Origin: Gemmatimonadota bacterium
GTDB lineage: Bacteria > Gemmatimonadota > Gemmatimonadetes > Gemmatimonadales > Gemmatimonadaceae
Length of the DNA stretch: 64,000 bases
NCBI GenBank assembly: GCA_046732835.1
Contig: JBKPNY010000122.1
Location: 14,004-78,003 of the forward strand
Direction of reading: 5' to 3'
Program-made: the position numbers and the translations under genes
In this document: positions 2,895 through 26,126 of the stretch, piece by piece
Numbering within the stretch: position 1 is the first letter of the stretch
Layout: every line of letters begins with the position of its first letter
The notes under the pieces: model-generated
Databases searched by the model: none
What the model saw: only the letters and a program-made list of their open reading frames with translations
What the model was told of the DNA's origin: nothing

Positions 2895-2978
2895 AGCGGA
2901 CCAGTTGATGGAAAGTGCTATCTAGCGCGGGTCATAGACGGTGTACAATTTCGAAGAGATCTTTGATTGGAGCGGATC

Positions 2979-3377
2979 ATGAGATGCCTCCAGACAGTCG
3001 CGATTGCATCAGTGTTTTTTTTCACGGCATGCGCCGGACAGAAGAGTTCTGGCCCGGGCATTCCGATAGAGCGCGATGTTATAACAGCAGACGAGATCGA
3101 GGCATCAAAGACGGAGAGCACCGCTTCGGCCTACGATGTTGTCAAGCGTCTGAGAGGCAACTTCCTGAGTTATCGTGGGCGTACAAGTCTGAAGAACACG
3201 TCGTCCCCTGATCCGACAGTGTATCTGGACGATCAAGCATATGGCCCAATCGCATCTCTGAGAAACATTCCAGCATCCCAAGTTGCGTATATCCGACTCT
3301 ACCGATCATGGGAGGCGGCGACCAAGTTCGGCATGGGAAACATGGGCGGGGTCATCGCGGTTGCAACTAAGCAGTAG
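2979..3377 (+). CDS. Small stand-alone TonB-receptor Plug-domain lipoprotein (no beta-barrel), paralog P1
   Basis: The ATG at 2979 is preceded by ggag. The N-terminus is MRCLQTVAIASVFFFTAC (lipobox). The body follows the Plug pattern: VITADEIE...AYDVVKRLRGNF...VYLDDQ...IPASQVAYIRLY...GGVIAVATK. At only about 132 aa there is no room for a barrel. Confidence 0.6.
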   Translation: MRCLQTVAIASVFFFTACAGQKSSGPGIPIERDVITADEIEASKTESTASAYDVVKRLRGNFLSYRGRTSLKNTSSPDPTVYLDDQAYGPIASLRNIPASQVAYIRLYRSWEAATKFGMGNMGGVIAVATKQ

Positions 3378-3517
3378 CGCGCTTCACAAACAGCAGGGTT
3401 GTAAAGTTGCGGACACGACCCTACTTTTTTCAATTGCCTGACGGAACGCTTTCACATCGCTAACCGAGAGCCGGTCTATGCGATGCGAAGCACATGCCTT
3501 TGCGGGAGCTCGTCCCT

Positions 3518-4216
3518 ATGAACCTACGCAGTCTACTCCGTACTTCCACAGTGTTGCTCGCGGCCGCAACGATGGCATGCGAGAAGGACGATCCAGTTTC
3601 GATCGCTCCTGAACAGCGTTTCACAGTCACACCTCTTTTCACCGGTATCGACCTCGGCGGCACTGAGCAGCTCACCGCGCAGATCGGCTCGAACCCTGTT
3701 CCAGTAACCTGGGAGAGCAGCGACCCGACGGTCGCCACTGTCGATGCCAACGGACTGGTGACCTCCCTCAAGGTTGGTTTCACCGCCGTCACAGCAACCC
3801 AGGTAGCCAATCCGTCGCAGAAGATCTCGGCCAACATCACCGTTCAGCCGGTAGTGCCGAGCACTCTGCTGCAGAACAATGTTCCGCTTGTCGTCTCCAG
3901 CAATGGAGCATTCCTGAGCCTTGCCCTGTATCGCATTTCGGTGCCAGCGGGCAAGACAAAGCTCACCGTCACAACATCTGGTCCGATCGACAAGGACCTG
4001 GATCTGCTCGTTAGAAAGGGAGCAGCACCAACCACGAATAACAGTACATTCGCTGTTACGGCTGACTGCTATTCCGGCGGTCTGAACACCAACGAGTCCT
4101 GCACCTTCCCGGATGCTGCCAAGCAGATCCCAGCTGCAAGCAAGGGCACGTACTACATCGGACTCTGGCTTTTCGATCAGTATTCTGGCGTAACACTGAC
4201 GGCCAAGTACGAATAA
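3518..4216 (+). CDS. Lipoprotein with a bacterial Ig-like (Big_2) domain and a pre-peptidase C-terminal (PPC)-like domain
   Basis: The ATG at 3518 gives MNLRSLLRTSTVLLAAATMAC (lipobox). VTWESSDPTVATVDANGLVTSLKVGFTAVTA is a classic Big_2 motif. The C-terminal part (YRISVPAGKTKLTVTTSGPIDKDLDLLVRKG...GTYYIGLWLFDQYSGVTLTAKY) matches the PPC pattern. Confidence 0.6.
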   Translation: MNLRSLLRTSTVLLAAATMACEKDDPVSIAPEQRFTVTPLFTGIDLGGTEQLTAQIGSNPVPVTWESSDPTVATVDANGLVTSLKVGFTAVTATQVANPSQKISANITVQPVVPSTLLQNNVPLVVSSNGAFLSLALYRISVPAGKTKLTVTTSGPIDKDLDLLVRKGAAPTTNNSTFAVTADCYSGGLNTNESCTFPDAAKQIPAASKGTYYIGLWLFDQYSGVTLTAKYE

Positions 4217-4252
4217 AAAGAGGTAGCAGAACGCAAGAGACCTGAAAACGAG

Positions 4253-4283
4253 AAACCCTCCGGATAACCGGAGGGTTTTTTGT
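4253..4283. terminator. Terminator hairpin between convergent genes (inner hairpin of a nested structure)
   Basis: Perfect 11-bp stem aaaccctccgg / ccggagggttt with loop ataa, followed by a T run. It lies between the stop at 4216 (+) and the stop at 4354 (-). It is enclosed by an 18-bp outer inverted repeat (4221-4239 / 4291-4308). Confidence 0.8.
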
Positions 4284-4353
4284 TCCGACACTCTGCGTTC
4301 TGCTACCTCTTGCGTGTTGGCGCGAATGCGCGCCAACCTCTGTTAACCTCTTA

Positions 4354-4872
4354 TTAGCCCTTTCTAAGGTTAGCGCAGGTCATCACGTCCGAGATCTGCG
4401 TTCCCGATCCCCAGTAGATGTTCACGTGATAGGTGCCGTTGTCCGGCAGCTCGAGCGACATCTCTCCATCCAGCTGTCCGCGTCCGTTGTTCCCAACCTC
4501 GATGACAGGGAATCGCTCGACGCCAACAAGTGGGAGCGAGCCCGTTCCGCAGCGGCCGGGGAGGACTGCCCAGTTCAGTGATGCCGCGCTCGACAGTGGA
4601 GTTGAGACCTGGATCGAAATTGCGGTGCGCGCCATTCCCTTCGAGGAGAGACGCACGCTGCCGAAAGCCTTGTTCTGTCCAGTGGGTCCGAGTCCACCCG
4701 AATTCTGCTGCATGGGCTGAAGGGCGCCCGACCATACTACCGGGCCGGCCGAGGCCGAGGTCGATACGCTCGCGGTGGGCACGCTAGCCGCAGAATCAGT
4801 AACAGGCTTTGACGAAGCGCACGCGGCGACTGCGGCGACGGATGCCGGCAAGCACAGAAGTCTGAGTCTCAT
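4354..4872 (-). CDS. Hypothetical lipoprotein
   Basis: The ATG at 4872 gives MRLRLLCLPASVAAVAAC (lipobox). This is followed by a Ser/Ala-rich linker and a roughly 120-aa domain that I do not recognise. The ORF-track start at 4914 adds 14 unlikely residues. Confidence 0.5.
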   Translation of the reverse strand: MRLRLLCLPASVAAVAACASSKPVTDSAASVPTASVSTSASAGPVVWSGALQPMQQNSGGLGPTGQNKAFGSVRLSSKGMARTAISIQVSTPLSSAASLNWAVLPGRCGTGSLPLVGVERFPVIEVGNNGRGQLDGEMSLELPDNGTYHVNIYWGSGTQISDVMTCANLRKG

Positions 4873-5056
4873 TGGAGTCCTTATTGAGATGTTGGCGGAA
4901 AAAAGTTCGCGCATTCTCGAACACGGTTAGCATGCGGAAGTTCCACTGTCAATGCAACGGCCTCGGCCGGGAAACCATTCCACAGCTGAAACGTATCAAA
5001 CATCAGGATGCGTTCGTTCTTGACGGTGCCATGTACCCGCATCATTACTTAATCCA

Positions 5057-6184
5057 ATGACAGCACGCGCGGTATTGTCGGCAGCATTTCTCCTCTCCAC
5101 GATCTCTCTTGTGCCCGTGAATGCTTTCGCGCAGGCGCGCGGCACGATCACGGGAACTGTGCGCGATTCTGCCGGTGCGATTGCCTTCGCCGAGATTTCG
5201 ATGGTGGGCACCGATGCAACAGTCATGACGGATGAAACCGGGCGCTTCCGCTTTACTGGAGTTCCTTTCGGCTCCGTCGAATTGAAGGCGCGCCGCATCG
5301 GTTACACTCCTGCAACTCAGACAATACAGTTCGCGAAAGGCACTGATCCAGTCATTGAGATTCTCATGTCGGCCGCGCCTGGCTACCTGCCTGCAGTCGA
5401 AGTTCACGAGCCGCGCCAGGTTTACGATTCTAGACTGCAGGGCTTCAAGGACAGAAGCACCAAAGGCGTTGGTTATTTCATAACTCGCGAGCGACTCGAC
5501 AAGCTGAACTCATTCCGTATGGTCGACGTCATTCGCGACATCCCGGGAGTCCGCATTCGCACTCTCCGGGGCGGCGGAAATACCCTTACGCTTCGCGGCG
5601 CACAATGTCCGCCGCTGCTTTTCGTCGATGGGAACCCGGCAGGCGCGGGAGCAGTCGACCTCGAGATGTTCGACCTCGGAATGGTCGAAGGAATCGAAGT
5701 CTATTCAGGTCTTGCGAGCCTGCCCCCCGAGTTTGTCACTGCACGCGGTATCGACAGGTGCGGCGTGATTGCGATCTGGTCCAAGCCGTACCGGCCAAAG
5801 CCGAAAAAAGTCATGGCAAACCTGACTCCGAAATCGCCGGCACTGGACAGCATTTTCAATGCGATGTCCATCTTTACCGTGGATCAGGTCGACACGCCTG
5901 CATCGCTAATCGCGGGGTCTGCGATTCCGCAATATCCGGATTCCCTCTGGCGCCAGGGAATTGCGGGAAAGGTTGTGATCGAGCTTGTCGTGAATGGAGA
6001 CGGCAACCTGGATCCGGCGTCGGTCAATCTCGTTTCCTCTACACATCAGCTTTTCACTGACGCGGTTCAGCAGTCCCTGGCGACGGCTAAGTTCAAGGCG
6101 GCCACCCTGAGATCGCGTCCGGTCCGACAGATTCTGCAGGTCCCGTTTGTCTTCAAGGCCGAGAAAGTCTCTCAGAATCACTGA
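5057..6184 (+). CDS. Secreted fusion protein: carboxypeptidase-regulatory-like domain + TonB-receptor Plug domain + TonB C-terminal domain (no barrel, no TonB membrane anchor), paralog F1
   Basis: - Signal peptide ...LVPVNAFA/QA.
- GTITGTVRDSAG...TDETGRFRFTGVPFGSVELKARRIGY is a CarboxypepD_reg-like fold motif.
- GYFITRERLDKLNSFRMVDVIRDIPGVRIRT...LLFVDGNP...VEGIEVYSG...GVIAIWSK is the Plug pattern.
- The C-terminus PQYPDSLWRQGIAGKVVIELVVNGDGNLDPASVNLVSSTHQLFTDAVQQSLATAKFKAATLRSRPVRQILQVPFVF is the TonB_C pattern. Confidence 0.65.
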   Translation: MTARAVLSAAFLLSTISLVPVNAFAQARGTITGTVRDSAGAIAFAEISMVGTDATVMTDETGRFRFTGVPFGSVELKARRIGYTPATQTIQFAKGTDPVIEILMSAAPGYLPAVEVHEPRQVYDSRLQGFKDRSTKGVGYFITRERLDKLNSFRMVDVIRDIPGVRIRTLRGGGNTLTLRGAQCPPLLFVDGNPAGAGAVDLEMFDLGMVEGIEVYSGLASLPPEFVTARGIDRCGVIAIWSKPYRPKPKKVMANLTPKSPALDSIFNAMSIFTVDQVDTPASLIAGSAIPQYPDSLWRQGIAGKVVIELVVNGDGNLDPASVNLVSSTHQLFTDAVQQSLATAKFKAATLRSRPVRQILQVPFVFKAEKVSQNH

Positions 6185-6412
6185 GCTGCGACAGCCGTTC
6201 GCCGATCTCTAACGGCCGTTCGCCGAAAACTTTGCAAGTTCTGCCAACAATTGAGCTTGCGGGCTTTTGTACCCCCGTACATTTTTCTGACACATTCCTT
6301 GCCGCAAGGCAATAACACGAATTCGCAATTCTGACCGGACTCCCAGCCGGTGGAATGGCGAGCTCGATGTTTTTGCTGTTTACGGCATCTCAGTTTCCAC
6401 GGGAGGATCGGC

Positions 6413-9400
6413 ATGAAAAAGGTTCGTAAGAGTCTTGCCGCACTTTCGCGCACCGCGCTGTTTCTGGGGCTGTTTGGAGCCTCGAGCGCACTGGCGCAAA
6501 ATGCGGTCATCACAGGTAAGATCACCAACGAGCAGGGGCAGCCGGTTGTAGGTGCCAACGTTGGCCTTCTCAACATGGGACTAGGCACAACGGCAAACTC
6601 GAATGGTGTGTACACGATCACTGTGCCCGACGACCGCGCGAGCGGCCAGCAGGCAACGCTGACCGTGCGTTTCATCGGTATGTCCCCAATCAGCCGCATC
6701 ATCCGCCTTACCCCGGGAAGCCAGAACATCGACTTCGCGATGAAGGCAGATCCGTTCCGCCTCGATGAAGTCGTCGTCACCGGCGTGAGCGCAGCAACAG
6801 AGCAGAAGAAGCTGACAGTTTCAGTTGCACACGTTGGCGAAGAGCAGCTCAAGCAGGTTCCTGCTTCATCACCTGTCGCAGCGCTCGCTGGAAAGGTCGC
6901 CGGCGCCAAGATCAACATCGGCTCGGGTAACCCGGGTGCCGCACCGACGATCCGCCTTCGCGGCTCGACGAACCTCGGCATCGGAAACTCGACTCCGGTC
7001 ATCATCGTCGACGGTGTTCTCACTCAGAACTCGATCGCCGACATCGATGCCAACGACATCGAGTCGGTCGAAGTTCTGAAGGGTGCCGCAGGCGCTTCGT
7101 TCTACGGCTCCGATGCCGCGAACGGTGTCATCAACATCACGACCAAGCGCGGCAAGAACCTGCCGGAAGACAAAGTGTCGTTCATGATCCGCTCGGAATA
7201 CGGCACGTCGTCACTTCAGAAATACATTCCGCTGGCTCACGACAATTTCTGGGAGCTCAATCCGGACGGAAGCATCCGCCTCGATGCAACCGGCGGCCGC
7301 GTGGTCAAGGCTGATCACTTTGCGGACAATCCTTATGCGACAACAGGCCCGAACGCCTGGCGCAACCAGCTCAAGGAATGGTCGAAGAACGGCGAGTTCA
7401 TCTCGGGCAACATTCAGCTCGGAATGCGTCACGGATCGACCAACTTCAACACGTCGTACACCTCCGATCACAATGCCGGTGTTCTGCCCCTTACCAAGGG
7501 TCAGTATCGTCAGAACATCCGCCTGAACGTCGATCAGGGACTGGGCGACAAGCTCGACTTCTCGTCGAGCATCACCTACGGCGTGAACAGAAACGACTAC
7601 GATCCAACTGATTCACAGTCGTGGTTCAACTTCATGCAGATGCCGCCCGACCTGGATCTGCGAAACCCGAATGGCAATGACACGGTAGCCTTCTTCCCGA
7701 AGCTTCCGACCACCAATTCGCCGAGCGCACGCGAGAACCCGCTCTACATTCTCGCGAACAATGACTTCCAGCTCCGCCGTGAGCGCATCATCGGCTCGCT
7801 GTCCGGCCGCTGGCGTCCGACCGACTGGCTCCGCGTCGAAACATCGTATGGCACGGACCGTCTCAATCGTCGCGAAAAGGATTACGATCGCCGTGGCTCA
7901 CTGGGAGAAGGCGGTCAGGCAATCCCTGGTAACATCAGCCAGTTCACGCTCAACAACGTTTCCGACAACGCGACTGTTAACGCTACGATCACCAAGCGAG
8001 TGGGCGAGCTTAACACCACGCTGCGCGGCGCGTACCTGTACGAGCAGAGCCGGAACGACAACTTCTTCGTATCGGGCACACGCTTCAACGTGACCGACGT
8101 TCCGGATCTTGGCGCACTCGATCCGACTCAGCTTGCAACGACGTCGCAGATCGAGATCGCACGCTCGAGCAACTACCTCGGCTCGGCGTCACTTGATTTC
8201 CGTGATCGCTATCTGGTCGACGGACTTGTTCGCAGCGACGGATCTTCACTGTTCGGTGAAGACGCTCGCCGCAACACGTTCTACAGAATCTCCGGTGCGT
8301 ATCGTATCGGCGAGGATCTGAAGATTCCTGGCGTGCAGGAGCTCAAGGTGCGCGCAGCTCGTGGAACCGCGGGACTCCGTCCCAACTTCCTCGATCAGTA
8401 CGAGTACTATACCGTCTCTGGTGGACAGATCTCGAAGACCCAGCTTGGAAACAAGAGCCTCAAGCCTGCAATCCAGACTGAGGACGAGTTCGGTCTCAAC
8501 GCTTCGTTTGCTCATCGCTTCGACCTCGAAGTCGTGCAGGCGAACCGCCTCACCAAGGGCGCTTTCCTCAACATCCCGCTGTCACTCGCGGCCTCCGGCG
8601 GATTCTCGTCGCAGGTTCAGAACGCGGCAGATGTGGAGGGAAAAACAACAGAGCTTTCGCTCAACACGCGCGTGTTCAGCCGTCCTGATTTCAGCTATGA
8701 CTTCACGCTGACGGGCGACCACACAACGCAGAAGATCAACAAGCTCGGCCGCGCTCCGTTCCGCGTGAACGCCGGTGGCCAGAGCCAGGACGTGTTCTAC
8801 TACAAGGAAGGCGAGAACCTCGGCGTGATCTACGGACAGCGTCTTGTCCGCACGTTCGCTGAGCTCAAGGACAACCCGGCGAACGCGAACGCAGTCGAGT
8901 CCGACTACGTCGTCAATCCGCTTGGACTCCTTGTAAAGGCAAGCACCCGTGGTCTCCCAACCGAGCGCCCGATTGTTTACACGGCGCCTGATGGCCAGAC
9001 AACGGTCAAGATTGGAGACGTGAATCCCAAGTTCAACTTTGGATTCGCGAACAACATCCGCTTCAAGGGCTTCGGTGTGTACGCACTGCTCGACGGCCAG
9101 CACGGCGGCGACGTGTACAACTTCACCAAGCAGTGGATGTTCCAGGATCTCCGTCACGGCGATTCCGACATGGCAGGCAAGCCGCAGGATCAGAAGATCG
9201 CGATGGACTTCTTCTCAGCGGGACTCTACAACGGTCTCGTTGCCAGCGACTACTTCGTCGAGGATGGTTCGTACGTGAAGCTCCGCGAGCTTTCGGTCAG
9301 CTACACGCTTGGCCAGAAGATGCTGGCGCAGACGGGCCTCGGCCGTATCACGAGCGGTGTCAAGCTCGCGCTCATCGGTCGCAACCTGTACACCTGGACC

Positions 9401-9517
9401 AATTACAGCGGCTTCGATCCAGAAGTTACGTCGGGCAACGACTTCAACTTCCGTATTGACGGCTTCCGTTATCCAAACTTCCGCACCGTTACCGGTCAGG
9501 TCGAGATCAGCTTCTGA
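6413..9517 (+). CDS. SusC/RagA-type TonB-dependent outer-membrane transporter (pair 2)
   Basis: The ATG at 6413 is preceded by gggagga and gives MKKVRKSLAALSRTALFLGLFGASSALA/QN. The protein has an N-terminal carboxypeptidase-regulatory-like domain, the TonB-box-like DEVVVTG, a Plug domain (VLKGAAGASFYGSDAANGVINITTKRG), a roughly 800-aa barrel and a terminal ...VEISF. Confidence 0.9.
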   Translation: MKKVRKSLAALSRTALFLGLFGASSALAQNAVITGKITNEQGQPVVGANVGLLNMGLGTTANSNGVYTITVPDDRASGQQATLTVRFIGMSPISRIIRLTPGSQNIDFAMKADPFRLDEVVVTGVSAATEQKKLTVSVAHVGEEQLKQVPASSPVAALAGKVAGAKINIGSGNPGAAPTIRLRGSTNLGIGNSTPVIIVDGVLTQNSIADIDANDIESVEVLKGAAGASFYGSDAANGVINITTKRGKNLPEDKVSFMIRSEYGTSSLQKYIPLAHDNFWELNPDGSIRLDATGGRVVKADHFADNPYATTGPNAWRNQLKEWSKNGEFISGNIQLGMRHGSTNFNTSYTSDHNAGVLPLTKGQYRQNIRLNVDQGLGDKLDFSSSITYGVNRNDYDPTDSQSWFNFMQMPPDLDLRNPNGNDTVAFFPKLPTTNSPSARENPLYILANNDFQLRRERIIGSLSGRWRPTDWLRVETSYGTDRLNRREKDYDRRGSLGEGGQAIPGNISQFTLNNVSDNATVNATITKRVGELNTTLRGAYLYEQSRNDNFFVSGTRFNVTDVPDLGALDPTQLATTSQIEIARSSNYLGSASLDFRDRYLVDGLVRSDGSSLFGEDARRNTFYRISGAYRIGEDLKIPGVQELKVRAARGTAGLRPNFLDQYEYYTVSGGQISKTQLGNKSLKPAIQTEDEFGLNASFAHRFDLEVVQANRLTKGAFLNIPLSLAASGGFSSQVQNAADVEGKTTELSLNTRVFSRPDFSYDFTLTGDHTTQKINKLGRAPFRVNAGGQSQDVFYYKEGENLGVIYGQRLVRTFAELKDNPANANAVESDYVVNPLGLLVKASTRGLPTERPIVYTAPDGQTTVKIGDVNPKFNFGFANNIRFKGFGVYALLDGQHGGDVYNFTKQWMFQDLRHGDSDMAGKPQDQKIAMDFFSAGLYNGLVASDYFVEDGSYVKLRELSVSYTLGQKMLAQTGLGRITSGVKLALIGRNLYTWTNYSGFDPEVTSGNDFNFRIDGFRYPNFRTVTGQVEISF

Positions 9518-9549
9518 TCTCGGCCCTGACGGGGGACTAATAACTCAAA

Positions 9550-11109
9550 ATGAGACCAATGAAAAAATTCCTTTCAGTCGCGAGTGCGGCGGCTCTTCTT
9601 CTCGGAAGCGCCTGCAACAATCTCGACGTAACCAATCCGAACAATCCGGATGTGGCGCGCGCACTGGCGTCACCCGAGGACGTGAAGAACATCGCGATCT
9701 CGACCATGAACTCGTGGTATCTCACGAGCACATACGTTGAGCCATACATCTCGATGTGCGTTACCGCGGATGCCTGCTCGGGCAACTTCGGAAACTTCGG
9801 CATGAGGTTCAACAACCTCGAGCCGCGCATTCCTTACGGCAACAACTCGGCAGGTGCTGATCGCACAGTCACCGAGTCGCCGTGGAACTTCAACTATCAG
9901 ACCTTGGGTGCAGCGAACGATGCCCTCCGTGCTTTTGCGGCAGGTATCAGCCTCGAGACTCCATCTGAGACGGCAAAGTTCAAATCGATCGCGCAGTTCA
10001 CGCAGGCCGCATCGATGATGAACCTTGCTCTCATCTTCGACAGAGCATTCGTCGTCGACGAGACCTTCGATGCAACCGCTGGTCCGCCGGAGCTCAAGCC
10101 TTACACCGAGGTTTCAGCAGCGGCTGCGGCAATGTTCGAAAAGACCATCGCCGACCTGAATGGTCAGAACGTGACGTACGATCCAACGGTGATTCCTACT
10201 ACCGTTGCGCTGACGTCGAGCAGACTTCAGCGGCTGTCGAACACGATGGAAGCGCTTCTCCTTGCCTACACCCCGCGTAAGGCTGCGGAAGTTGCCAGTG
10301 TAGACTGGGCGAAAGTTGCTTCGCTCGCCGACAAGGGAATCGGAACCGGCTCAGCCGGCGCTCCGTTCGACTTCATCGTGCAGGGTGACAACAACGTCTG
10401 GTACTCCTACATCGCGTTCTACGAAGATGAGAAGTCCTGGGTTTACGTTGACCAGCGCCTGATCCACAGAATGGACCCGAGCATTCCTGAGAAGTTCACC
10501 GGGACGATCGTTCCGCGCGGTACTTCACCTGATGCCAGGTACCTCTCGGATTACGGCTTCCAGAGCCCGGTCGTCGGAGATCCGAGCCGTGGTATTTACA
10601 TGCAGAGTCCGTTCTGGCACTCGCGTTATGTTGGACACGCGCGCCTTTCGGCGACTGCAGCCAGAACACCGGTACCTTACCTCCTCGCGGCAGAGAGCGA
10701 TCTCGTTCGCGCAGAGGCGTTGATCCGCAAGGCGGGACCTGATCTCGCAACTGCGGCAACACTCATCAACAACACCAGAGTGACGCGTGGTCACCTTCCT
10801 CCTGCTACCGCAGCGGAAGGAGCTACAACACTCCTGAGCTACATCGATTACGAGCGCGAGATCGAGCTGCACGCGACGAGCGGATTCACGCTCTTCCAGC
10901 GCAGACACGTCGACGGACTGCAGCCTGGCACGTACCGCCACCTGCCGATTCCGGCGAAGGAGCTCGAGACGCTTGCACTGCCGATCTACACCTTCGGTGG
11001 TGTTGGCAGCCCGGATCAGAACATACTGCTTCCTGATGGAACGCTGAGTGCACTTCGCTCGGCGCCGAAGCTTTCGAGAGCCCCGCTGTCTGAGGCAATC
11101 GAGCGCTAA
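9550..11109 (+). CDS. SusD/RagB-type outer-membrane lipoprotein (pair 2)
   Basis: The N-terminus is MRPMKKFLSVASAAALLLGSAC (lipobox); the start may be 9550 or 9559. The C-terminal part has AESDLVRAEALIRK...LINNTRVTRG, a SusD-like pattern. The gene starts 33 nt after the SusC stop. Confidence 0.75.
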   Translation: MRPMKKFLSVASAAALLLGSACNNLDVTNPNNPDVARALASPEDVKNIAISTMNSWYLTSTYVEPYISMCVTADACSGNFGNFGMRFNNLEPRIPYGNNSAGADRTVTESPWNFNYQTLGAANDALRAFAAGISLETPSETAKFKSIAQFTQAASMMNLALIFDRAFVVDETFDATAGPPELKPYTEVSAAAAAMFEKTIADLNGQNVTYDPTVIPTTVALTSSRLQRLSNTMEALLLAYTPRKAAEVASVDWAKVASLADKGIGTGSAGAPFDFIVQGDNNVWYSYIAFYEDEKSWVYVDQRLIHRMDPSIPEKFTGTIVPRGTSPDARYLSDYGFQSPVVGDPSRGIYMQSPFWHSRYVGHARLSATAARTPVPYLLAAESDLVRAEALIRKAGPDLATAATLINNTRVTRGHLPPATAAEGATTLLSYIDYEREIELHATSGFTLFQRRHVDGLQPGTYRHLPIPAKELETLALPIYTFGGVGSPDQNILLPDGTLSALRSAPKLSRAPLSEAIER

Positions 11110-18372: not shown

Positions 18373-18397
18373 ATCTCATTATAACGCTGAACGGCAG

Positions 18398-18814
18398 TCA
18401 GCGTGTGTACAGCACTATTGCACCTGAAATTGGATCGCTGCCGATGTCTGACAGCACTACTGAAGCCCTGGAAGCCGACAGCCATTCCATGCGCTTGATC
18501 CCTGATGAGCTCAGGCTTCGCAGCGTTTCAGTTCCGCCGAGCTTGTTTCCGTCGAGGTAAACGAGCGTCACCTGATTGCGTGATGTGCCGCCGCCAATCG
18601 ACCCTGTTGCGCCTGCGCGCAGCCAGTGCGGCCGCAGACGGTAGATCAGGTCGTACACATTGTTCGACGGCGTCTGCGCGATTTCAACGCTCGTCACTTT
18701 ATCTGACGACGATTCACTTACGTTTGGCTTGGCGCCTCCACTCGACGACGCGCATGCTGCTGACATGAGCGCTCCTCCAGAGAGCGCGATGCTGAGTACC
18801 AGGCGACCTTTCAT
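18398..18814 (-). CDS. Small stand-alone TonB-receptor Plug-domain lipoprotein, paralog P2
   Basis: The N-terminus is MKGRLVLSIALSGGALMSAAC (lipobox). The Plug-like body is VTSVEIAQTPSNNVYDLIYRLRPHWL...LVYLDGNKLGG...IKRMEWLSA...GAIVLYTR. The gene lies 25 nt upstream of dnaE on the same strand and is divergent from the F2 fusion gene. Confidence 0.55.
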   Translation of the reverse strand: MKGRLVLSIALSGGALMSAACASSSGGAKPNVSESSSDKVTSVEIAQTPSNNVYDLIYRLRPHWLRAGATGSIGGGTSRNQVTLVYLDGNKLGGTETLRSLSSSGIKRMEWLSASRASVVLSDIGSDPISGAIVLYTR

Positions 18815-18944
18815 GAGTTTCCCCCTGCCGGACCAGAAGCGGTTTGCGTTCTCGGGAATCTGTGCGAGACCATACTATACGGAAAGATCGCATTGTGTGC
18901 CGATGTACCCTCCGCTATGCTTTCGTGAAAGGGACCGCATTGCC

Positions 18945-20099
18945 ATGACCTCAATGCTTTCTGTATCGCTCGCACAGACACTGCGCAAAGCGCTCGGCTG
19001 TGCTGCGGTCTGGCTCGCCGTATTCGCCGTTGATTTGCAGGCGCAGGCGTTCGGCGTGGTGTCCGGTGTGGTAACGGATTTCGCCGGCGCGCCGATTTCC
19101 AGCGCGGAGATCGTGATTGCCGGATTAGGGATTACTTCGCGAACAGACGACCTGGGTCGATTCCGCATCAGCTCGCCGATTGGTCTCGTCACGCTCAGCG
19201 CTCGTCGCATGGGATTTGAGCCCGCGACACGACAGGTTCAACTGGGTGGATCCAGTGAAGTGACCAATGTCGCGATCCAGCTCAAATCACTGCCGAGCGT
19301 TCTCAAGCCTGTGGTTGTGACAACGAACAAGATCGACTACACAGGAAGGCTCGCCGGTTATTACCACCGGCTCGAGAGCAGGAACGTCGGTTATTTCATC
19401 ACGAGGGATGAAATCGACAAGCAGAATCCGCGAACCATCACGCAGCTCCTTACTCACATACCGGCGATCAACGCCACGAAAATGAGATCGGGTGGGGGTG
19501 GCGTGCGAATGCGGGGACGTCAGTGCTGGCCACTGGTGTGGCTCGATGGACTGCAGATGGGTGCGGGAGAAGTCGATCTGGATGCGTTCCCGCCATCGTC
19601 TATTCAGGGGATCGAGATTTACCTCGGTTCGACAACAGCGCCCATTCGATACATGGCCAATCGCGACCAGTCGAGTTGTGGAACCATACTATTGTGGTCG
19701 CGTGGTCCCGATACGGATCCGGTTACCAGGCCTCGCCAGCAGCGGTTCGATCTGGAGCGGATGGTTGCGTCGCTCACAGTGTATACCGCCGATCAGGTGG
19801 ACAAACCGGCTTTGCCCGCGCCGCATTCTCAAACGAATGTGGATTATCCCCCGGCGATTTTTGCTGACGGACAGGGGGGGTCCGTGGTTGCGGAGTTCGT
19901 TGTCGACTCGGCAGGGCGCGTGGAGGAGGGAACTTTTGGGATTGTTTCGTCAACCCACCCTCTCCTGAGCGATGCGGTGAGACGGGCAGTCGAGGGAAGT
20001 ATCTACATCCCCGCGCAGCTCAAAGGTTCGCCCGTGCGTCAGGTGGTGGTGCAGCCGTTCTCATTCCCGCCAAGGCTGAAGAAAAAATCCCGCGGGTAA
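18945..20099 (+). CDS. Secreted fusion protein: carboxypeptidase-regulatory-like + Plug + TonB C-terminal domain, paralog F2
   Basis: The likely start is ATG 18945 (MTSMLSVSLAQTLRKALGCAAVWLAVFAVDLQAQA); the ORF-track start 18660 overlaps the divergent gene. The protein is colinear with F1: VSGVVTDFAG...DDLGRFRI, then GYFITRDEIDKQNPRTITQLLTHIPAI...VWLDGLQMG...IQGIEIYLG...GTILLWSR, then the C-terminal DYPPAIFADGQGGSVVAEFVVDSAGRVEEGTFGIVSSTHPLLSDAVRRAV...GSPVRQVVVQPFSF (TonB_C pattern). Confidence 0.65.
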   Translation: MTSMLSVSLAQTLRKALGCAAVWLAVFAVDLQAQAFGVVSGVVTDFAGAPISSAEIVIAGLGITSRTDDLGRFRISSPIGLVTLSARRMGFEPATRQVQLGGSSEVTNVAIQLKSLPSVLKPVVVTTNKIDYTGRLAGYYHRLESRNVGYFITRDEIDKQNPRTITQLLTHIPAINATKMRSGGGGVRMRGRQCWPLVWLDGLQMGAGEVDLDAFPPSSIQGIEIYLGSTTAPIRYMANRDQSSCGTILLWSRGPDTDPVTRPRQQRFDLERMVASLTVYTADQVDKPALPAPHSQTNVDYPPAIFADGQGGSVVAEFVVDSAGRVEEGTFGIVSSTHPLLSDAVRRAVEGSIYIPAQLKGSPVRQVVVQPFSFPPRLKKKSRG

Positions 20100-20231
20100 G
20101 CCCGGCGCCCCGCAAGATTTGCTTGCGGATTCACAACTTCCTTACATATTAGCGTAAATAAATGACCCTTCACCACGCTTCCCCTGAACCCAGGTGAAAG
20201 CGCGGTGATCGCTATTCGTGAGCCTTGTACT

Positions 20232-20453: not shown

Positions 20454-23400
20454 ATGAAGAAACTACTCCGTCCAACGAAGGTCCTCCTTCTGATTGCCGC
20501 TGCGCTCGCCGGTGTGTCACCGGCAGTTGCGCAAAGCCAGGGGGCGGTAATTTCCGGACGAGTGATGTCGGAGCAGGGACAGCCACTCGTCGGCGCAAAC
20601 GTCTACATCAACGACCTGAACATTTCGGTCGGCACTTCGCAGTCGGGCGCGTACACACTCAACATTCCGCAGGCACGTCTGAATGGTCAGACTGTGAACC
20701 TGCGTGTTCGCGCGATTGGTTATCAGCCGCAAACCCGGCAGATCGCGCTCACGGCTGGCTCGGTCAGCGTAAACTTCGACCTCCGCCGCGACGTCACGCA
20801 GCTTGGTGAAGTCGTCGTGACGGGCGTTGCGACTGCAACGGAGGCGATCAAGCTGCCGTTCACTGTCGCGCGTATCGACACCACGCTGATGCCCGTGTCG
20901 GGCTCGAATCCGATCTCGCAGCTGCAGGGAAAGATTCCTGGCGCGATGATTGTCGCGTCGTCCGGCCGCCCTGGCACAGCACCTTCAATCGTTCTGCGCG
21001 GACCCGTTTCGCTGGACGCTACGGGTCGCAGCCAGCAGCCACTGTATCTGCTCGACGGCGTTCCGCTTCAGGGTGGACTTCCTGACATCAACCCCGGCGA
21101 CATCGAGAACGTCGAAGTCGTGAAGGGCGCAGCCGCCGCATCGCTCTACGGTGCACGCGCTGGCGCCGGCGTCATCAACATCACCACGAAGAGTGGAAGG
21201 AATGCGCCACCCGGCCTTCGCTTTGGAGTGCGCAGCGAAGTCGGCGCAGGCGATATCGAGCACCAGTTCCCGCTCGCTACCCGCACAGCAATGAGTCTCG
21301 CCCCCGGCGGACAGCTCTACTGCAGCACCGAAGTCGTCGGTGGCTCGAGGTGTGGACGTTACATCAACTGGGATTCAGAAGTTCAGCGAATCAACAACAA
21401 CGGCGAGGATTTCTCCGGATCACCGCAGAACTTCCTGACCGAGGCGAGCCTCGCAGCAGCGCCGAACTACGACGCGATGAGCGGCTCATTTGTCATCAAT
21501 CGTTATTCGTCGCTCCGGGATCCGGTCGCACAGCTCGTCACGCCTTCGGTCTACGCGAACTCGAACATGGACATTCGCGGAAAGGTCAATAACACCGGCG
21601 TGTTTGCAAGCCTTGGCAACCTCACACAGCAGGGTGCGATCCAGGGAATGGGTGGGTTCGTGAGGAACTCCGCTCGACTGAACATCGATCAGCGTTTTGG
21701 TGACCGTATCAGCACCAACATCAACAGCTTCTACAGCCAGAGCGCGGATCACGGTTCGAATCTCGAGGCTGAGGGCGCCGGTTCAACGAGTCCCTTCTTC
21801 ACGATCACGCGCGCGCCGTATGTCGCTGACATCGAAGCTCGGGATAATCTTGGCCGAATCGTCGTGCGTCATAACCCGACAGCGCAAGGGGTGCAGAACT
21901 TCAACCCGCTGTACGCGGCGTTCTATAACAGGCGTACTGACAGAAGCACCCGCTTTGTCGGCGGTGCGAGCTCGAAGTACACCCCGCTCGACTGGCTCAA
22001 CCTCGAAGCAAATGTCGGCTACGATCGATCGACCGGCATCTTCACTCAACAGCGTGACCGCGGCTGGCGTGTCACTGCGTCGAACCCGACAACTTCTGCC
22101 GGGTTCATTCAGAACGGAAGCACTGACAACGAGCAGCTTACAACGGGCTTGAGTGCAACTGCGACGCACACCTTCCTCAGCGACCTCAACGCAACACTCA
22201 CAGGTCGATATATCTACGGAGATCAAACACTTCGTACCCAGGATTTGCAGGGTGTTGACCTGGTCGTCGCGGGCCTCGAAACCGCGGACGCCGCCACGAA
22301 GAACTTTGCGATTGGGTCCGGCGTGCAGAAAATCCGCGACATGGGTTACTTCCTTGGCGCCGATTTCGATTTAAAGGATCGCTATGTTCTGAACGGGCTG
22401 GTCCGTCGCGACGGAAGCTCGCTCTTCGGATCAGGTAACCGCTGGCAGACATTCGGCCGTGTTGCGGCAGCGTGGATTACTTCACGTGAGCCATGGTGGC
22501 CGGCACCGGATGCGTTGAGCCTGTTCAAGCTCCGTGCATCACGTGGATCGACCGGTCAGCGTCCGCGCTTCAGCGCACAGTATGAAACGTTCACCATTGG
22601 AACCGGTGGAACCTTGAACCCCGCGTTCCTTGGCAACAAGAATCTCAAGCCTGAGATCAACACCGAAACCGAGCTCGGAACCGATCTCGAGTTCTTCCAT
22701 CGCATTGGCCTCAACATCTCGTACGCGAAGGCTGTCGTCGACGATCAGATTCTTCCAGTTCGTGCTTCGACTGCGACGGGATTTCAGCAGCAGTGGCTTA
22801 ACGCCGGTGAGATTACGAACAAGACGTGGGAAGGAACACTTACTGTCCCGGTCATCCAGCGTCGCAACTTCAGCTGGACAAGTCGCCTGATCTACGATCA
22901 GACGCGTTCGGTCATCACAAGACTCGATGTCCCTGACTTCACGGGCGACATCACAGCCGGCAACGCGTTCACCGTCTTCAAGTTCCGCGAGGGCGAGAAG
23001 ATCGGCACGATGTACGGCGCCACATTCATTCGTAACTGCTCGCAGCTCCCTGCTGCGTTTGCATCACAGTGCTCGATGAGTGCGGGGGATCTCAGCTCAG
23101 CGTATCGTCCGAATGACGAGGGATACATCGTCTGGGTTGGTCAGGGCAACCTGCCATCCGAAGGCGTGACGAAAAACCTCTGGCGCTCGCAGATTCCGCT
23201 CGGTCAGGGACCATACGGCAACCGAGTCAACTGGGGCATGCCGATCGTGCAGCGCGACGAATCCACCGGCAACGTTTCCAACGTCGCCGTCGGCAACGGA
23301 CTTCCCAAGTATCACTGGGGCCTTTCGCAGAGCGTCGATATCGGCCGGTTCAACATCTACGGATTGCTCGACGCAGCGCACGGTCAGAAGCTCTTCAATA

Positions 23401-23834
23401 TTCAGGAGGCATGGTCTCTCGCCGACCTGCAGAGCGGTGTCGTGAATCAGGAAGGCAAGAGCGTCGAGAGCGCGAAGCCGATTGGATACTACTGGCGTCA
23501 GGGACCGTCGCTGTCACCGACGGCTGGCTCAACTGCCGGCATCGGCGGCTTCTACGACCTGCTTGGACCGAACAGCTACAACATGCAGGACGCAAGCTAC
23601 GTCAAGCTGCGTGAAGCATCGGTCAACGTCAGGCTCGGCGCAATTGGTGGAACCGGCGACTGGAAAGTCGGCGTCGTTGGCAGAAATCTGAAGACGTGGA
23701 CTGACTTCCGCGGCTTCGACCCCGAGTCCGGCAACACGACGGGAGCATTCAACTCCGCCGCGTTGACGGGTGTTGCAGGCTACCGCTATCCGAAGATGCG
23801 GACCTACACAGTACAGGTTTCCACTTCGTTCTAA
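20454..23834 (+). CDS. SusC/RagA-type TonB-dependent outer-membrane transporter (pair 3)
   Basis: The ATG is preceded by gaggt. The signal peptide is MKKLLRPTKVLLLIAAALAGVSPAVA/QS. The protein has a carboxypeptidase-regulatory-like domain, GEVVVTG, a Plug domain (VVKGAAAASLYGARAGAGVINITTKSG), a long barrel and a terminal ...VQVSTSF. Confidence 0.9.
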   Translation: MKKLLRPTKVLLLIAAALAGVSPAVAQSQGAVISGRVMSEQGQPLVGANVYINDLNISVGTSQSGAYTLNIPQARLNGQTVNLRVRAIGYQPQTRQIALTAGSVSVNFDLRRDVTQLGEVVVTGVATATEAIKLPFTVARIDTTLMPVSGSNPISQLQGKIPGAMIVASSGRPGTAPSIVLRGPVSLDATGRSQQPLYLLDGVPLQGGLPDINPGDIENVEVVKGAAAASLYGARAGAGVINITTKSGRNAPPGLRFGVRSEVGAGDIEHQFPLATRTAMSLAPGGQLYCSTEVVGGSRCGRYINWDSEVQRINNNGEDFSGSPQNFLTEASLAAAPNYDAMSGSFVINRYSSLRDPVAQLVTPSVYANSNMDIRGKVNNTGVFASLGNLTQQGAIQGMGGFVRNSARLNIDQRFGDRISTNINSFYSQSADHGSNLEAEGAGSTSPFFTITRAPYVADIEARDNLGRIVVRHNPTAQGVQNFNPLYAAFYNRRTDRSTRFVGGASSKYTPLDWLNLEANVGYDRSTGIFTQQRDRGWRVTASNPTTSAGFIQNGSTDNEQLTTGLSATATHTFLSDLNATLTGRYIYGDQTLRTQDLQGVDLVVAGLETADAATKNFAIGSGVQKIRDMGYFLGADFDLKDRYVLNGLVRRDGSSLFGSGNRWQTFGRVAAAWITSREPWWPAPDALSLFKLRASRGSTGQRPRFSAQYETFTIGTGGTLNPAFLGNKNLKPEINTETELGTDLEFFHRIGLNISYAKAVVDDQILPVRASTATGFQQQWLNAGEITNKTWEGTLTVPVIQRRNFSWTSRLIYDQTRSVITRLDVPDFTGDITAGNAFTVFKFREGEKIGTMYGATFIRNCSQLPAAFASQCSMSAGDLSSAYRPNDEGYIVWVGQGNLPSEGVTKNLWRSQIPLGQGPYGNRVNWGMPIVQRDESTGNVSNVAVGNGLPKYHWGLSQSVDIGRFNIYGLLDAAHGQKLFNIQEAWSLADLQSGVVNQEGKSVESAKPIGYYWRQGPSLSPTAGSTAGIGGFYDLLGPNSYNMQDASYVKLREASVNVRLGAIGGTGDWKVGVVGRNLKTWTDFRGFDPESGNTTGAFNSAALTGVAGYRYPKMRTYTVQVSTSF

Positions 23835-23905
23835 AAAAAAGGAATGACATCGGCGGGCAGCCCGTGAGTGATCACGGACTGCCTCGCCTAACCCTTAATG
23901 AATCA

Positions 23906-25582
23906 ATGAGGCTTTTGATGCGTCACCGAACGAAAGTTCAACTCATATCTGCTGCGGTATTGAGTGCGTCGATGGCGATTGTCGCGTGTACCGACAATCC
24001 GCTCGACGTCAGGAACCAGCAGAACCCGGACGTCTCGAAGGTTTATGGAAGTCCCAAGGACGTCGAGACGATCGTATCGAAATTGTTCCAGCAGCTGTGG
24101 AACGCTCAGCAGGCAAACACCGGAATCGGTGTACAGACTATGGTAATGTCGTTCGAGAGTCACTCCGCACTCGCGAACTTCGGACTTGGAGCTCGCGCTG
24201 CAATTCCGCGCGGTCTGATCAGCAATGCGCTTGGCAACGCCAACCAGACCGAGAACTTCAACGACTTCGACGGGCTGCAGAGAAATGCGCGCAGCGCGGC
24301 AAATGCAATCGCCGCGATCTACGCCTTCAACGCTGCTTCACCGGCACAATCGATCGGGTCCCCGGCGCGCGATGTCAGAGCGAAGGCATTTGGCTACTTT
24401 GAGCTCGGATATGCGCTAGGGAACGTGGCGCTGATCTACGATTCGGCGTCCATCATTCTACCCAGTACTCCAAACGGGGAAATCCCCGCTCTCTCTGCGG
24501 CGAAGGACGTGATGGCCGCGGCGCTGCAGATGATGGACTCGGCTCTGGCTTATGCGGTCTCGCCGGACGTTGCGAACGGTAGCAATGGTTTCCCGATTCC
24601 TGGTGGATGGGTTTCAGGACCGGACCTGCCAGCAGCATCGTTCATCAAGCTTGTTCGCTCGTACAAGGCGCGGTTCCGTGCAAACGTTTCCCGCACGCCG
24701 GCCGATCGCGTTGCGGTTAACTGGGATGCGGTCATCGCTGATACGCAGAACGGTATTACCGCTGACTTCATAGTCAACGCCGATGCGACCCTCGGATGGG
24801 CGCTCGGCTGGCGCAGCCAGCTTGGCGTAGATGCAACGTGGAGCCAGATGACTCCGATGATTCTTGGAATGGCCGACACCACGCTGGCGTACGATGCCTG
24901 GCTCGCGGCTCCGCTCGACAAGCGCACACCGTTCCTTCTTCGCACGCCTGACAAGCGGTTCCCATCCGGTGAGACGCGTGCAATTCAGTCAGCAATTCAG
25001 GGATCAAGCCGCGCGGGCACACCAGCGGGCTCGATTCTTTATTTCATCAATCGCCCGTCGGGAGACGACAAGGTCGCCGAGCCGTGGGGGACGTGGTGGT
25101 ATGACAACTGGCGCTTCTGGGGTCCCAGAGCGGCCGGCGGCAACGGACCCGTAACCGCTTTCTCGGTTGCAGAAAACGACCTGCTCCAGGCCGAAGGCCA
25201 ATATCGCAAGGGCAACGTCGCTGCGACGACTGCGCTCATCGACAAGACTCGCGTTCGCGCAGGTCTGCCGGCGCTTTCGGGTGTCGTGACGACTCTTACG
25301 GGCACGGTACCAGGTGGAAGTGCCTGCGTGCCGCGCGTTCCGCAGGCGCCAGGCTACACATCAACTGCCTGCGGCAGTCTTCTCGAGGCATTGAAGTGGG
25401 AGAAGAGAGTAGAGACGTCATTCACCGGATACGCGCAGTGGTGGCTGGATTCGCGGGGCTGGGGTGATCTCGTGGAAGGCACAGCCCTCGAGTGGGCGGT
25501 TCCATGGCAGGAGCTGTTCGCGCGACTTGGTGACACCTACACGAACACTTTAAGGGCCGCAAAGGGCACTTACGGTCTTTAG
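23906..25582 (+). CDS. SusD/RagB-type outer-membrane lipoprotein (pair 3)
   Basis: MRLLMRHRTKVQLISAAVLSASMAIVAC carries the lipobox; ATG 23906 or 23918 is possible, and the GTG 23864 of the ORF track is less likely. The C-terminal part has ENDLLQAEGQYRKGNVAATTALIDKTRVRAGLP, a SusD-like pattern. Confidence 0.7.
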   Translation: MRLLMRHRTKVQLISAAVLSASMAIVACTDNPLDVRNQQNPDVSKVYGSPKDVETIVSKLFQQLWNAQQANTGIGVQTMVMSFESHSALANFGLGARAAIPRGLISNALGNANQTENFNDFDGLQRNARSAANAIAAIYAFNAASPAQSIGSPARDVRAKAFGYFELGYALGNVALIYDSASIILPSTPNGEIPALSAAKDVMAAALQMMDSALAYAVSPDVANGSNGFPIPGGWVSGPDLPAASFIKLVRSYKARFRANVSRTPADRVAVNWDAVIADTQNGITADFIVNADATLGWALGWRSQLGVDATWSQMTPMILGMADTTLAYDAWLAAPLDKRTPFLLRTPDKRFPSGETRAIQSAIQGSSRAGTPAGSILYFINRPSGDDKVAEPWGTWWYDNWRFWGPRAAGGNGPVTAFSVAENDLLQAEGQYRKGNVAATTALIDKTRVRAGLPALSGVVTTLTGTVPGGSACVPRVPQAPGYTSTACGSLLEALKWEKRVETSFTGYAQWWLDSRGWGDLVEGTALEWAVPWQELFARLGDTYTNTLRAAKGTYGL

Positions 25583-25590
25583 GAATAGTC

Positions 25591-26055: not shown

Positions 26056-26126
26056 AAAAACTCCTTCACTCAGGTTCTCGCAGCTCGTCAATAACACTAT
26101 CAACGTCATTTTCTGGAGTTTCCATA

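Follow-up and report, generated by a model that had tools for sequence, protein, structure and literature searches.

A Predicted Secreted, Barrel-Less Fusion of a SusC-Like N-Terminus and a TonB C-Terminal Domain Encoded beside SusCD Transporters in Gemmatimonadota

Introduction

TonB is usually assumed to act only as a membrane-anchored transducer, and Plug domains are usually assumed to exist only inside barrels. In solved complexes of TonB with a transporter, TonB pairs with the TonB box through β-strand addition, and HasB is a dedicated TonB paralog that is encoded beside its cognate receptor. Here we describe a gene family, which we name PT, whose products carry an N-terminal extension (NTE) and a Plug core resembling those of SusC-like transporters together with a TonB C-terminal domain (TonB_C). 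The gene from which we started, PT1, occupies positions 5057..6184 on the forward strand of a 64,000-nucleotide stretch of contig JBKPNY010000122.1 (assembly GCA_046732835.1, a soil Gemmatimonadota bacterium of the Gemmatimonadaceae), hereafter the window, and encodes a 375-amino acid (aa) export-type fusion of an NTE, a TonB-box-like strand, a Plug core, and a TonB_C. A paralog with the same architecture, PT2, lies at 18945..20099 on the same strand and is 35% identical to PT1.

With TonB, including paralogs of the HasB type, PT shares a C-terminal TonB_C with the PxYP motif and a terminal β-strand, as well as a short Pro/Lys-rich segment ahead of that domain, and like TonB paralogs it is encoded beside a specific TonB-dependent transporter (TBDT). 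It differs from TonB in lacking an uncleaved transmembrane helix, the SHLS motif, a long proline spacer, and, in the surveyed neighborhoods, linkage to exbBD, and in having a cleavable signal, an NTE, and a Plug core. Judged by these features, and whatever its name in the databases, PT is not a TonB, for although the TonB_C is present, the anchor and the spacer are absent. The part of PT spanning aa 15-230 is homologous to and collinear with the N-terminus of SusC/RagA proteins (BT1763; 8aa4/9gbc), from the signal through the NTE and the strand at the position of the TonB box to a Plug core that extends as far as GVIxIxTK. PT nevertheless lacks the 22-strand barrel and the last part of the plug, its box is degenerate (LxxVxV vs. 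EVVVTG), and it has an inserted helix, two invariant cysteines that SusCs lack, and a fused C-terminal TonB_C. By the same reasoning PT is not a transporter, as the NTE and Plug are present but the barrel is absent. The original prediction, made from the letters of the window and their translations, had set PT1 apart from conventional transporters and conventional TonBs alike, and the absence of barrel, anchor, and long spacer upholds that distinction.

Three further systems invite comparison. In anchor-less TonB fragments, as in PT, a TonB C-terminal domain is free in the periplasm and unconnected to ExbBD, but such fragments are artificial or proteolytic, whereas PT is encoded by a naturally occurring, conserved gene, has additional domains, and has a partner of its own in the genome. 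TolB is a soluble periplasmic β-propeller with a TolA box at its N-terminus, to which the TonB_C-like domain III of TolA binds. Like TolB, PT would be a soluble protein with a signal peptide, a short strand motif of the kind recognized by TonB or TolA, and an outer-membrane partner, features that for PT are read from its sequence. There is, however, no kinship in sequence or fold between the two, and TolB has no TolA/TonB_C domain of its own. The STN domain of FecA and FoxA is also a periplasmic domain next to a TonB box, and it can occlude the box and regulate TonB access, but it has a different fold, belongs to the same polypeptide as the transporter, and acts together with an anti-sigma factor; no anti-sigma gene was found in the surveyed neighborhoods of PT. 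A fusion of Plug and TonB_C, or a family of barrel-less Plug proteins, is not described in the full-text literature that we searched, most subscription journals being outside its scope, nor was either found by a targeted search within a 2025 survey of periplasmic force transducers (PMC12204202). Within this literature, PT is a previously undescribed combination of known modules of the Ton system.

Domain Architecture of PT1

A longer N-terminus is ruled out for PT1, as 5057 is the first start codon following an in-frame stop. Pfam recognizes CarboxypepD_reg at aa 30-103 (PF13620, E 2.4e-15; also PF13715, E 2.2e-11), Plug at aa 140-221 (PF07715, E 5.2e-11, 43.4 bits against a cut-off of 23.9, profile positions 10-96 of 107), and TonB_C at aa 291-367 (PF03544, E 1.9e-10, 41.5 bits against a cut-off of 24.6). 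All three matches exceed the curated Pfam cut-offs, and the NCBIfam model tonB_Cterm (TIGR01352) scores 35.2 bits against a cut-off of 27.1. No Pfam match to the barrel (PF00593) was found in the 375 aa of PT1, and TIGR04056, a model of 981 positions, is covered only over positions 3-179, only in PT2, and far under its cut-off. The Pfam model of the TonB polyproline region has no match in PT1, and neither STN (PF07660) nor FecR-like domains were matched in PT by Pfam or NCBIfam.

When a profile of the PT family was compared with PDB sequences, aa 15-230 matched the N-termini of SusC proteins and TBDTs (9gbc, E 1.8e-15; 8aa4; 5t3r) and the C-terminus matched TonB C-terminal domains (6fip, 6i97_D, 2k9k, 1xx3), with the TonB–transporter complex structures 6i97 and 2gsk among the matches. 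Foldseek searches with the PT1 model returned the same three fold classes, including 5aq0, the SusC NTE 9hfj, and a FoxA-bound TonB C-terminal domain. The three-part fusion of CarboxypepD_reg, Plug, and TonB_C without a barrel that had been claimed for PT1 is therefore supported by Pfam, NCBIfam, the PDB profile search, and Foldseek in agreement, with significant matches for both the Plug and the TonB_C, and the same three domains are found by Pfam in PT2.

The AlphaFold2 monomer models of PT1, computed from alignments of 30 and 113 sequences, contain three domains of high confidence, with flexible linkers in between and an undefined mutual arrangement (predicted template modeling score 0.38 with 30 sequences and 0.42 with 113). 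The NTE, a CarboxypepD_reg β-sandwich at aa 28-105 (5138..5371; PF13620; Foldseek 5aq0 and 9hfj), is modeled with a predicted local distance difference test score (pLDDT) above 90, ranging from 91 to 97, and the Plug core with a pLDDT of 85-93. All features of PT1 lie on the forward strand.

Conservation and Selection

A search of 5.8 billion proteins with PT1 gave 218 matches, nearly all of which are 365-410 aa long and carry the same four Pfam models. Their named sources are Gemmatimonadaceae or Gemmatimonadales, apart from one given only as ‘bacterium’ and one as ‘soil metagenome’, and those that bear a protein name in the databases appear exclusively as ‘TonB family protein’, ‘TonB-dependent receptor plug domain-containing protein’, or ‘hypothetical protein’. 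An exhaustive search of representatives at 50% identity added ~100 further PT clusters, each with a single full-length match of 360-425 aa; the very long matches in that search are unrelated proteins with tandem CarboxypepD_reg repeats. Among 113 aligned PT members there are 24 invariant columns, including those of C184 and C235. Taken with the labels of the loci surveyed below, this distribution indicates that PT is specific to the Gemmatimonadota lineage.

The ratio of nonsynonymous to synonymous substitution rates (dN/dS) was calculated for PT1 against an ortholog of 86% identity in locus L001. It is 0.08 overall, and by region it is 0.30 in the signal peptide, 0.09 in the NTE, 0.07 in the TonB-box-like linker, 0.08 in the helix and Plug, and 0.04 in the TonB_C, so that the signal peptide is the sole fast-evolving part of the gene. 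PT is thus a real, conserved gene family under purifying selection, and its uniform length together with the dN/dS of 0.08 rules out a frameshifted, truncated, or decaying copy of a SusC. A survey of the architecture across genomes had been called for in the original prediction, which named a barrel hidden by a frameshift as the outcome that would undo it; the architecture proved to be conserved, and the same uniform lengths and low dN/dS leave no room for such a frameshift.

The N-Terminus

The first 25 residues of PT1 (5057..5131) read MTAR, AVLSAAFLLSTISLVPV, and NAFA, followed by QA, and judged by these features they have the n/h/c layout of a Sec signal cleaved by signal peptidase I, with a hydrophobic stretch of ~17 residues. 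Both the length and the sequence of this hydrophobic region vary across the family, while an [AGSV]x[AGS]-Q site closes the N-terminal region in 101 of the 113 members and Q26 is kept in at least 90%. The mature protein would begin 2-5 residues ahead of the first NTE strand, as it does in the SusC proteins of the window, and no conserved His and no SHLS-type motif (SxxxH…L…S) was found across the aligned PT N-termini. Because the region is variable, the AxA-Q site common, the His/SHLS motif missing, the layout SusC-like, and the dN/dS as high as 0.30 (vs. 0.04-0.09 in the domains), we infer that the N-terminus of PT is a Sec-type signal peptide cleaved between AFA and Q and not an anchor of the TonB type, as had been predicted for PT1. 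The opposite reading, an inner-membrane anchor, was rejected on account of the variability, the cleavage motif, and the highest dN/dS of the gene.

The TonB-Box-Like Segment, Plug Core, and TonB C-Terminal Domain

Downstream of the NTE is a flexible TonB-box-like segment of low pLDDT (aa 107-120, APGYLPAVEVHEPR; 5375..5416) that aligns with the L-D-E-V-V-V-T-G of SusC; in the alignment, …YLPAVEVHEP… of PT1, with its strand-like L-P-x-V-E-V, stands at the position of the SusC TonB box. Across 57 PT/SusC pairs the SusC boxes are conserved as L100-x-E64-V86-V80-V88-T100-G100 (in percent), whereas the PT segment keeps only L88-x-x-V81-x-V92 and has lost the T-G and the central V. On this comparison the PT segment is a partly conserved motif of the β-strand type (LxxVxV) and not a canonical TonB box. 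The original prediction had PT1 carrying both partners of the interaction between TonB box and TonB_C, a reading that is weakened by the lower conservation of the segment relative to the real TonB box of SusC.

A family-specific, amphipathic helix (aa 122-136) and the Plug core (aa 140-245) follow at 5420..5791. The helix motif YDxRLxGFxxR is found in 111/113 members, with R126, L127, G129, and R133 invariant, and in the alignment SusCs have no counterpart of this helix. The Plug core stops at RCGVIAIWSKP, which aligns with ANGVINITTK of SusC, and the downstream part of a true plug is absent. Pfam thus confirms a Plug-like module, but the alignment with SusC reveals a truncated core instead of a full plug, and this truncation likewise weakens the earlier reading. 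C184 (codon 5606-5608) and C235 (codon 5759-5761) lie within the core; their conservation in PT2 had been noted before and extends here to invariance in the 113 aligned members, the two motifs that surround them being present in 107/113 and 111/113. Since exactly two cysteines occur after residue 30, that is, in the mature part, in 109/113 members and both are invariant, C184 and C235 probably form an extracytoplasmic disulfide. The extra helix and the cysteine pair plausibly make the Plug core an autonomous soluble domain that does without a barrel; for comparison, the isolated plug of FepA is reported to be unfolded (PMC11658791).

Between the Plug core and the TonB_C is a disordered linker of ~25 aa (aa 246-270; 5792..5866; pLDDT 39-57), and in PT1 the stretch at aa 245-262 reads KPYRPKPKK…TPKSP. 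The prediction that a Pro-rich spacer is missing holds in that there is no long one, but this short Pro- and Lys-rich linker does exist. The TonB_C itself (aa 271-367; 5867..6157), which is matched by PF03544, TIGR01352, and PDB sequences, has the PQYP motif and ends in a VRQ…PFVF strand, which we take to be the edge that pairs with a TonB box. PxYP is present in 104/113 members and the terminal strand is conserved. Because both the motif and the strand are kept, the TonB_C of PT looks competent for binding. Docking of the box-like segment on its own TonB_C was never seen in the AlphaFold2 models with 30 or 113 sequences, in which the segment is not a strand and has a pLDDT of 49-64. A fixed intramolecular self-cap, one of the roles first suggested for PT1, is therefore not predicted by models that otherwise resolve the three domains with confidence, and this constitutes weak evidence against obligate self-capping.

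Genomic Context of PT Genes

For the genomic context, one genome per GTDB species was scanned, which gave 121 encoding stretches; 80 loci were kept and compared with the window proteins by tblastn. Almost all of the kept loci are labeled Gemmatimonadota, Gemmatimonadales, Gemmatimonadaceae, or Gemmatimonas, and three are labeled only ‘bacterium’. They contain 83 PT copies, 72 of them informative in that at least 1.5 kb of downstream sequence is available. In 56 of these 72 (78%), a SusC-like gene in the same orientation starts 200-750 bp downstream and is usually followed by a SusD-like gene, and the pairing of orthogroups is strict: PT1-type genes precede SusC1-type genes in 44/44 cases and PT2-type genes precede SusC2-type genes in 12/12. 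The placement of PT1 directly upstream of a SusCD pair, as first reported for the window, is accordingly a recurrent arrangement. Given the SusC directly downstream in 56/72 and the strict pairing, we infer that PT serves as an accessory to one particular SusCD transporter, the one whose genes follow immediately.

In the window, the partner of PT1 is SusC1 (6413..9517, forward strand), a SusC-like TBDT that itself carries a signal peptide, an NTE, a TonB box (LDEVVVTG), and a Plug, followed by SusD1 (9550..11109, forward strand), a SusD-like lipoprotein recognized by a weak SusD_RagB match and by conserved synteny. The partners of PT2, SusC2 (20454-23834) and SusD2 (23864-25582), form the block 20454..25582 on the same strand. 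The order PT–SusC–SusD recurs in five independent metagenome or genome contigs with precomputed Pfam annotation, among otherwise variable neighbors that include S9 peptidases, a tricorn protease, GDSL-type hydrolases, and a carbamoyltransferase. No genes for ExbB, ExbD, canonical TonB, or sigma/anti-sigma factors were found in these five neighborhoods or among the scanned open reading frames of the window, and no two-component or other sensor/regulator genes were found in the same set. The exbBD genes are often unlinked from TonB genes. In two more loci, L025 and L080, PT is convergent with the SusCD pair; in L025 there are two tandem PT copies (5033-6106 and 6924-8009), unlike the usual order of PT then SusC.

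Related Barrel-Less Plug Proteins

PT is not the only barrel-less protein with a Plug core in these loci. The window encodes three mini-Plug lipoproteins, each consisting of a lipobox and a Plug core: one at 2967-3377 on the forward strand, which adjoins a SusCD pair, one at 18398..18814 on the reverse strand, which adjoins a SusCD pair too, is divergent from PT2, and has counterparts beside PT2 orthologs in many loci, and one at 32949-33395 on the reverse strand, which also adjoins a SusCD pair. In all three, the lipobox Cys is followed by a linker of ~20 aa and a Plug core that closes at a GxIxIxT[KR] strand, the same terminal strand as in PT. Each of the four SusCD pairs of the window is adjoined by a PT gene, a mini-Plug gene, or both. 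A profile search found at least 620 homologs of the mini-Plugs; among 120 matches listed, lengths are 119-176 aa, a lipobox-like motif is present in 114, and all named organisms are Gemmatimonadota. Orthologs of the mini-Plug at 32949-33395 keep the synteny aminopeptidase–SusC–SusD–mini-Plug–UvrD. Automated pipelines misname mini-Plugs as ‘outer membrane cobalamin receptor’.

A sister architecture of 258 aa comprises a signal peptide, an NTE, a canonical-looking TonB box (ETVTVTA), the helix, and a Plug core with the same two cysteines, and has no TonB_C. Such NTE–Plug proteins are encoded on the reverse strand in L063 (1782-2558) and L065 (~3995-4780), and P0223, P0243, and P0264 are probably further examples. 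They show that a soluble NTE–Plug half, as judged from its signal peptide and domains, exists alone. Across the three kinds of protein, the Plug core and helix appear to be the common element, to which a TonB_C, an NTE, or a lipid anchor is added interchangeably.

Proposed Function of PT

Several features of PT converge on the conclusion that it is very probably a secreted, barrel-less accessory that is dedicated to a SusCD transporter. Its first ~245 residues appear to be a diverged copy of the periplasm-facing N-terminus of SusC, re-engineered to fold in a barrel-free form, and the whole protein would be soluble in the periplasm. Because PT has no link to ExbBD, it should be unable to energize transport by itself. 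The role that we tentatively favor, as possible rather than probable, is that of a transporter-specific competitor or gatekeeper of TonB coupling, acting as a brake or tuner of import. The TonB_C of PT would bind the exposed TonB box of its partner SusC by β-strand addition but, having no membrane anchor to ExbBD, would be unable to pull, and it would thus compete with or gate the TonB coupling of its transporter, with an effect presumed to be negative. The N-terminal half, which mimics SusC, may simultaneously engage TonB or whatever usually recognizes the NTE. Competition at the TonB box is to be expected because PT, like anchor-less TonB fragments, is unconnected to ExbBD. According to a preprint, such fragments inhibit energy transduction by competition, and a peptide of the TonB box proved promising as an inhibitor (bioRxiv 10.1101/2022.09.26.509584). 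There is also precedent for occlusion of the box, as the signaling domain of FecA blocks its own TonB box until ligand binds (PMC11658791). It is the missing ExbBD link, the inhibition by anchor-less fragments, and the FecA precedent that lead us to prefer this role.

A number of observations weigh against it. About 20% of PT members have no adjacent SusC, and one orthogroup is in an unrelated context; this third PT orthogroup, found in L050, L052, L057, L060, and others, has no neighboring SusC. A brake would need only the TonB_C, and this does not account for the equally strong purifying selection on the NTE, the box-like strand, and the Plug core. The sister architecture without TonB_C implies that the Plug-core half has a function of its own, which the model leaves unexplained. 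Finally, the gene context gives no hint of how the cell would profit from an inhibitor that is constitutively encoded.

The constraint on every module would be accounted for if PT were required for import as a force-relaying adaptor, or extension cord, in which an anchored general TonB grips the NTE and box-like strand of PT while the TonB_C of PT grips the box of the cognate SusC. The polarity would suit proteins acting in series, with input on the N-terminal side through the box-like strand and output at the C-terminus through TonB_C, the order also seen in TonB. Moreover, L..V.V of the box is kept at 81-92%, the segment has a dN/dS of 0.07, and the one-to-one coinheritance of PT with specific SusCs resembles that of dedicated TonB paralogs. 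Such an adaptor would also fit the NTE as a conferrer of TonB specificity, a role that has been proposed for it in Bacteroides (PMC7782687; bioRxiv 10.64898/2026.09.16.752182). We nonetheless consider it unlikely. The PT box has lost two features of SusC boxes, the invariant T-G and the central V, the partner SusCs have a canonical NTE and TonB box and should bind TonB directly, and relatives without TonB_C are unable to relay force. In addition, a barrel-less Plug core in the path of the force would be expected to unfold before the barrel-supported plug of the partner; the isolated FepA plug is reported to be unfolded (PMC11658791). PT might instead be a stable periplasmic subunit or biogenesis factor of the SusCD complex that binds the N-terminus of SusC (TonB box and NTE) during assembly or afterwards, where it would hold or chaperone this flexible region or tether the complex to other parts of the envelope, with the Plug core as an interaction module in common with the mini-Plugs. 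Genes for barrel-less Plug cores flank every SusCD pair of the window, the mini-Plug lipoproteins, at least 620 in number and with SusCD synteny, suggest that the Plug core is a general SusCD-associated module, and the phenotype of an NTE deletion in Bacteroides was possibly due to biogenesis according to its authors (PMC7782687). However, Bacteroides SusCD complexes are functional, and their structures known, in the absence of any such subunit (PMC7782687; bioRxiv 10.64898/2026.09.16.752182), and a chaperone has no obvious need for the TonB_C fold; we regard this explanation as rather doubtful, a little more so than the relay.

In TBDTs, an exposed TonB box signals that ligand is bound (PMC11658791), and the TonB_C of PT could sense the box of a loaded SusC while its N-terminal half signals to an inner-membrane sensor, which would amount to a version in trans of the STN/anti-sigma arrangement. 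The SusCs linked to PT have no STN domain and the two halves of PT are separable on a flexible linker, both of which speak for it; yet the surveyed neighborhoods hold no sigma, anti-sigma, two-component, or other regulator genes, and PT has neither an STN nor a FecR-like domain, which makes a signal mediator improbable. Still less credit is due to the reading of PT as an ordinary TonB paralog in which the hydrophobic stretch stays uncleaved as an anchor in the inner membrane and the place of the proline spacer is taken by folded domains. A stretch of ~17 residues, the label ‘TonB family protein’, and the several paralogs per genome, which recall the multiple TonBs of other bacteria, speak for it, but the N-terminus is the least conserved part of the protein and varies in length, it has no conserved His or SHLS motif, it closes with a signal-peptidase motif in 101/113 members, its layout is that of exported SusCs, and no exbBD was found in the surveyed neighborhoods. 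That PT is an artifact, either a duplicated SusC that was truncated or frameshifted or a reading frame that arose by chance, is scarcely credible: the N-terminal 230 aa are indeed homologous to SusC N-termini, but the uniform length of 365-425 aa across more than 100 clusters at 50% identity, the low dN/dS, and a genuine TonB_C end in place of barrel remnants contradict it, and PT1 is followed by a complete SusC gene that encodes a signal peptide of its own. Returning to the competitor or gatekeeper that we prefer, it has a bolder counterpart in the idea that PT is an obligatory soluble link in a three-protein relay from TonB through PT to SusC and that PT, the NTE–Plug proteins, and the mini-Plugs make up an unrecognized class of periplasmic SusCD partners, a proposition that we also hold to be unlikely.

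Significance

The role of the SusC NTE is still open (PMC7782687; bioRxiv 10.64898/2026.09.16.752182). A family of soluble, export-type NTE–Plug and TonB_C fusions tied to SusCD would challenge what is assumed about the anchoring of TonB, the confinement of Plug domains to barrels, and the role of the NTE. The architecture, together with the mini-Plug and NTE–Plug relatives, would surprise specialists of TonB and SusCD and offers a handle on NTE function. PT could serve as a natural tool for studying the binding partner of the NTE, the periplasmic gating or relay of TonB coupling, and the solo folding of a Plug core. Were the relay true, TonB-dependent import in these bacteria would be a three-protein relay with a periplasmic, transporter-specific adaptor, and if PT only fine-tunes uptake it would still represent a new regulatory layer for SusCD importers outside the Bacteroidota. 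PT occurs in genomes of the Gemmatimonas lineage. The genus Gemmatimonas includes cultured members, so genetics and biochemistry on PT may be feasible.

Regulatory Sequence and Neighboring Genes

Immediately upstream of PT1, at 5020-5057 of the window, TTGACG is followed after 17 nt by CATTAC right before the start codon. Because this sequence immediately precedes the start codon, it suggests that the leader of PT1 is very short or absent. In other loci, 13 of 75 PT genes have CTTGACGG in the 120 nt ahead of them, and the TTGACG −35-like element is enriched upstream of PT genes (13/75). A TGTACCC motif, three of whose five matches in the window are upstream of PT1, SusC1, and PT2, was dropped as a candidate, as it is not among the top 7-mers upstream of the 75 PT genes. 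Counts of promoter-like and terminator-like sites around PT1–SusC1 are at the level of shuffled controls, no terminator-like site was found between PT1 and SusC1, and no Rfam family was found in the window.

Upstream of PT1, on the reverse strand, is orf186 (4354..4914), a conserved lipoprotein that is syntenic with PT1–SusC1–SusD1 in many loci by tblastn. Its C-terminal ~125 aa are conserved, in many loci it is usually located past SusD on the opposite strand, and it has no match in Pfam and no sequence match in the PDB. A gene for a GDSL_2/SGNH hydrolase (~600-660 aa) recurs beside PT–SusCD in L089 (8022-10001), L087 (8107-9918), and L088 (16909-18813), and in L089 its final annotated base is the first base of the PT gene.

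The window contains four SusC/SusD-like pairs in 33 kb (110-2846, 6413-11109, 20454-25582, and 28425-32893), which sit among housekeeping genes (metG, dnaE, accA, uvrD) and not in clusters of carbohydrate-active enzymes, and their SusD-like proteins barely match or miss Pfam SusD_RagB. The window also encodes an Opp-type ABC system, a POT transporter, and a peptidase C26 (46556-56363), as well as an aminopeptidase (26990-28081), and in L081 S9 peptidases and a tricorn protease (2987-8805 and 17414-20911) flank a PT–SusCD locus. Since the surroundings are rich in genes for peptide uptake and catabolism, it is plausible that the SusCD pairs of the window import peptides or protein rather than glycans.

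The block at 18398-26933, which holds the second mini-Plug, PT2, SusC2, SusD2, and two small genes, one of them encoding a DUF4397 protein, is flanked by dnaE (14893-18372) on one side and the aminopeptidase gene (26990-28081) on the other. In the relatives L083-L086 dnaE directly adjoins the aminopeptidase gene, and the block therefore represents an insertion or deletion difference between lineages.

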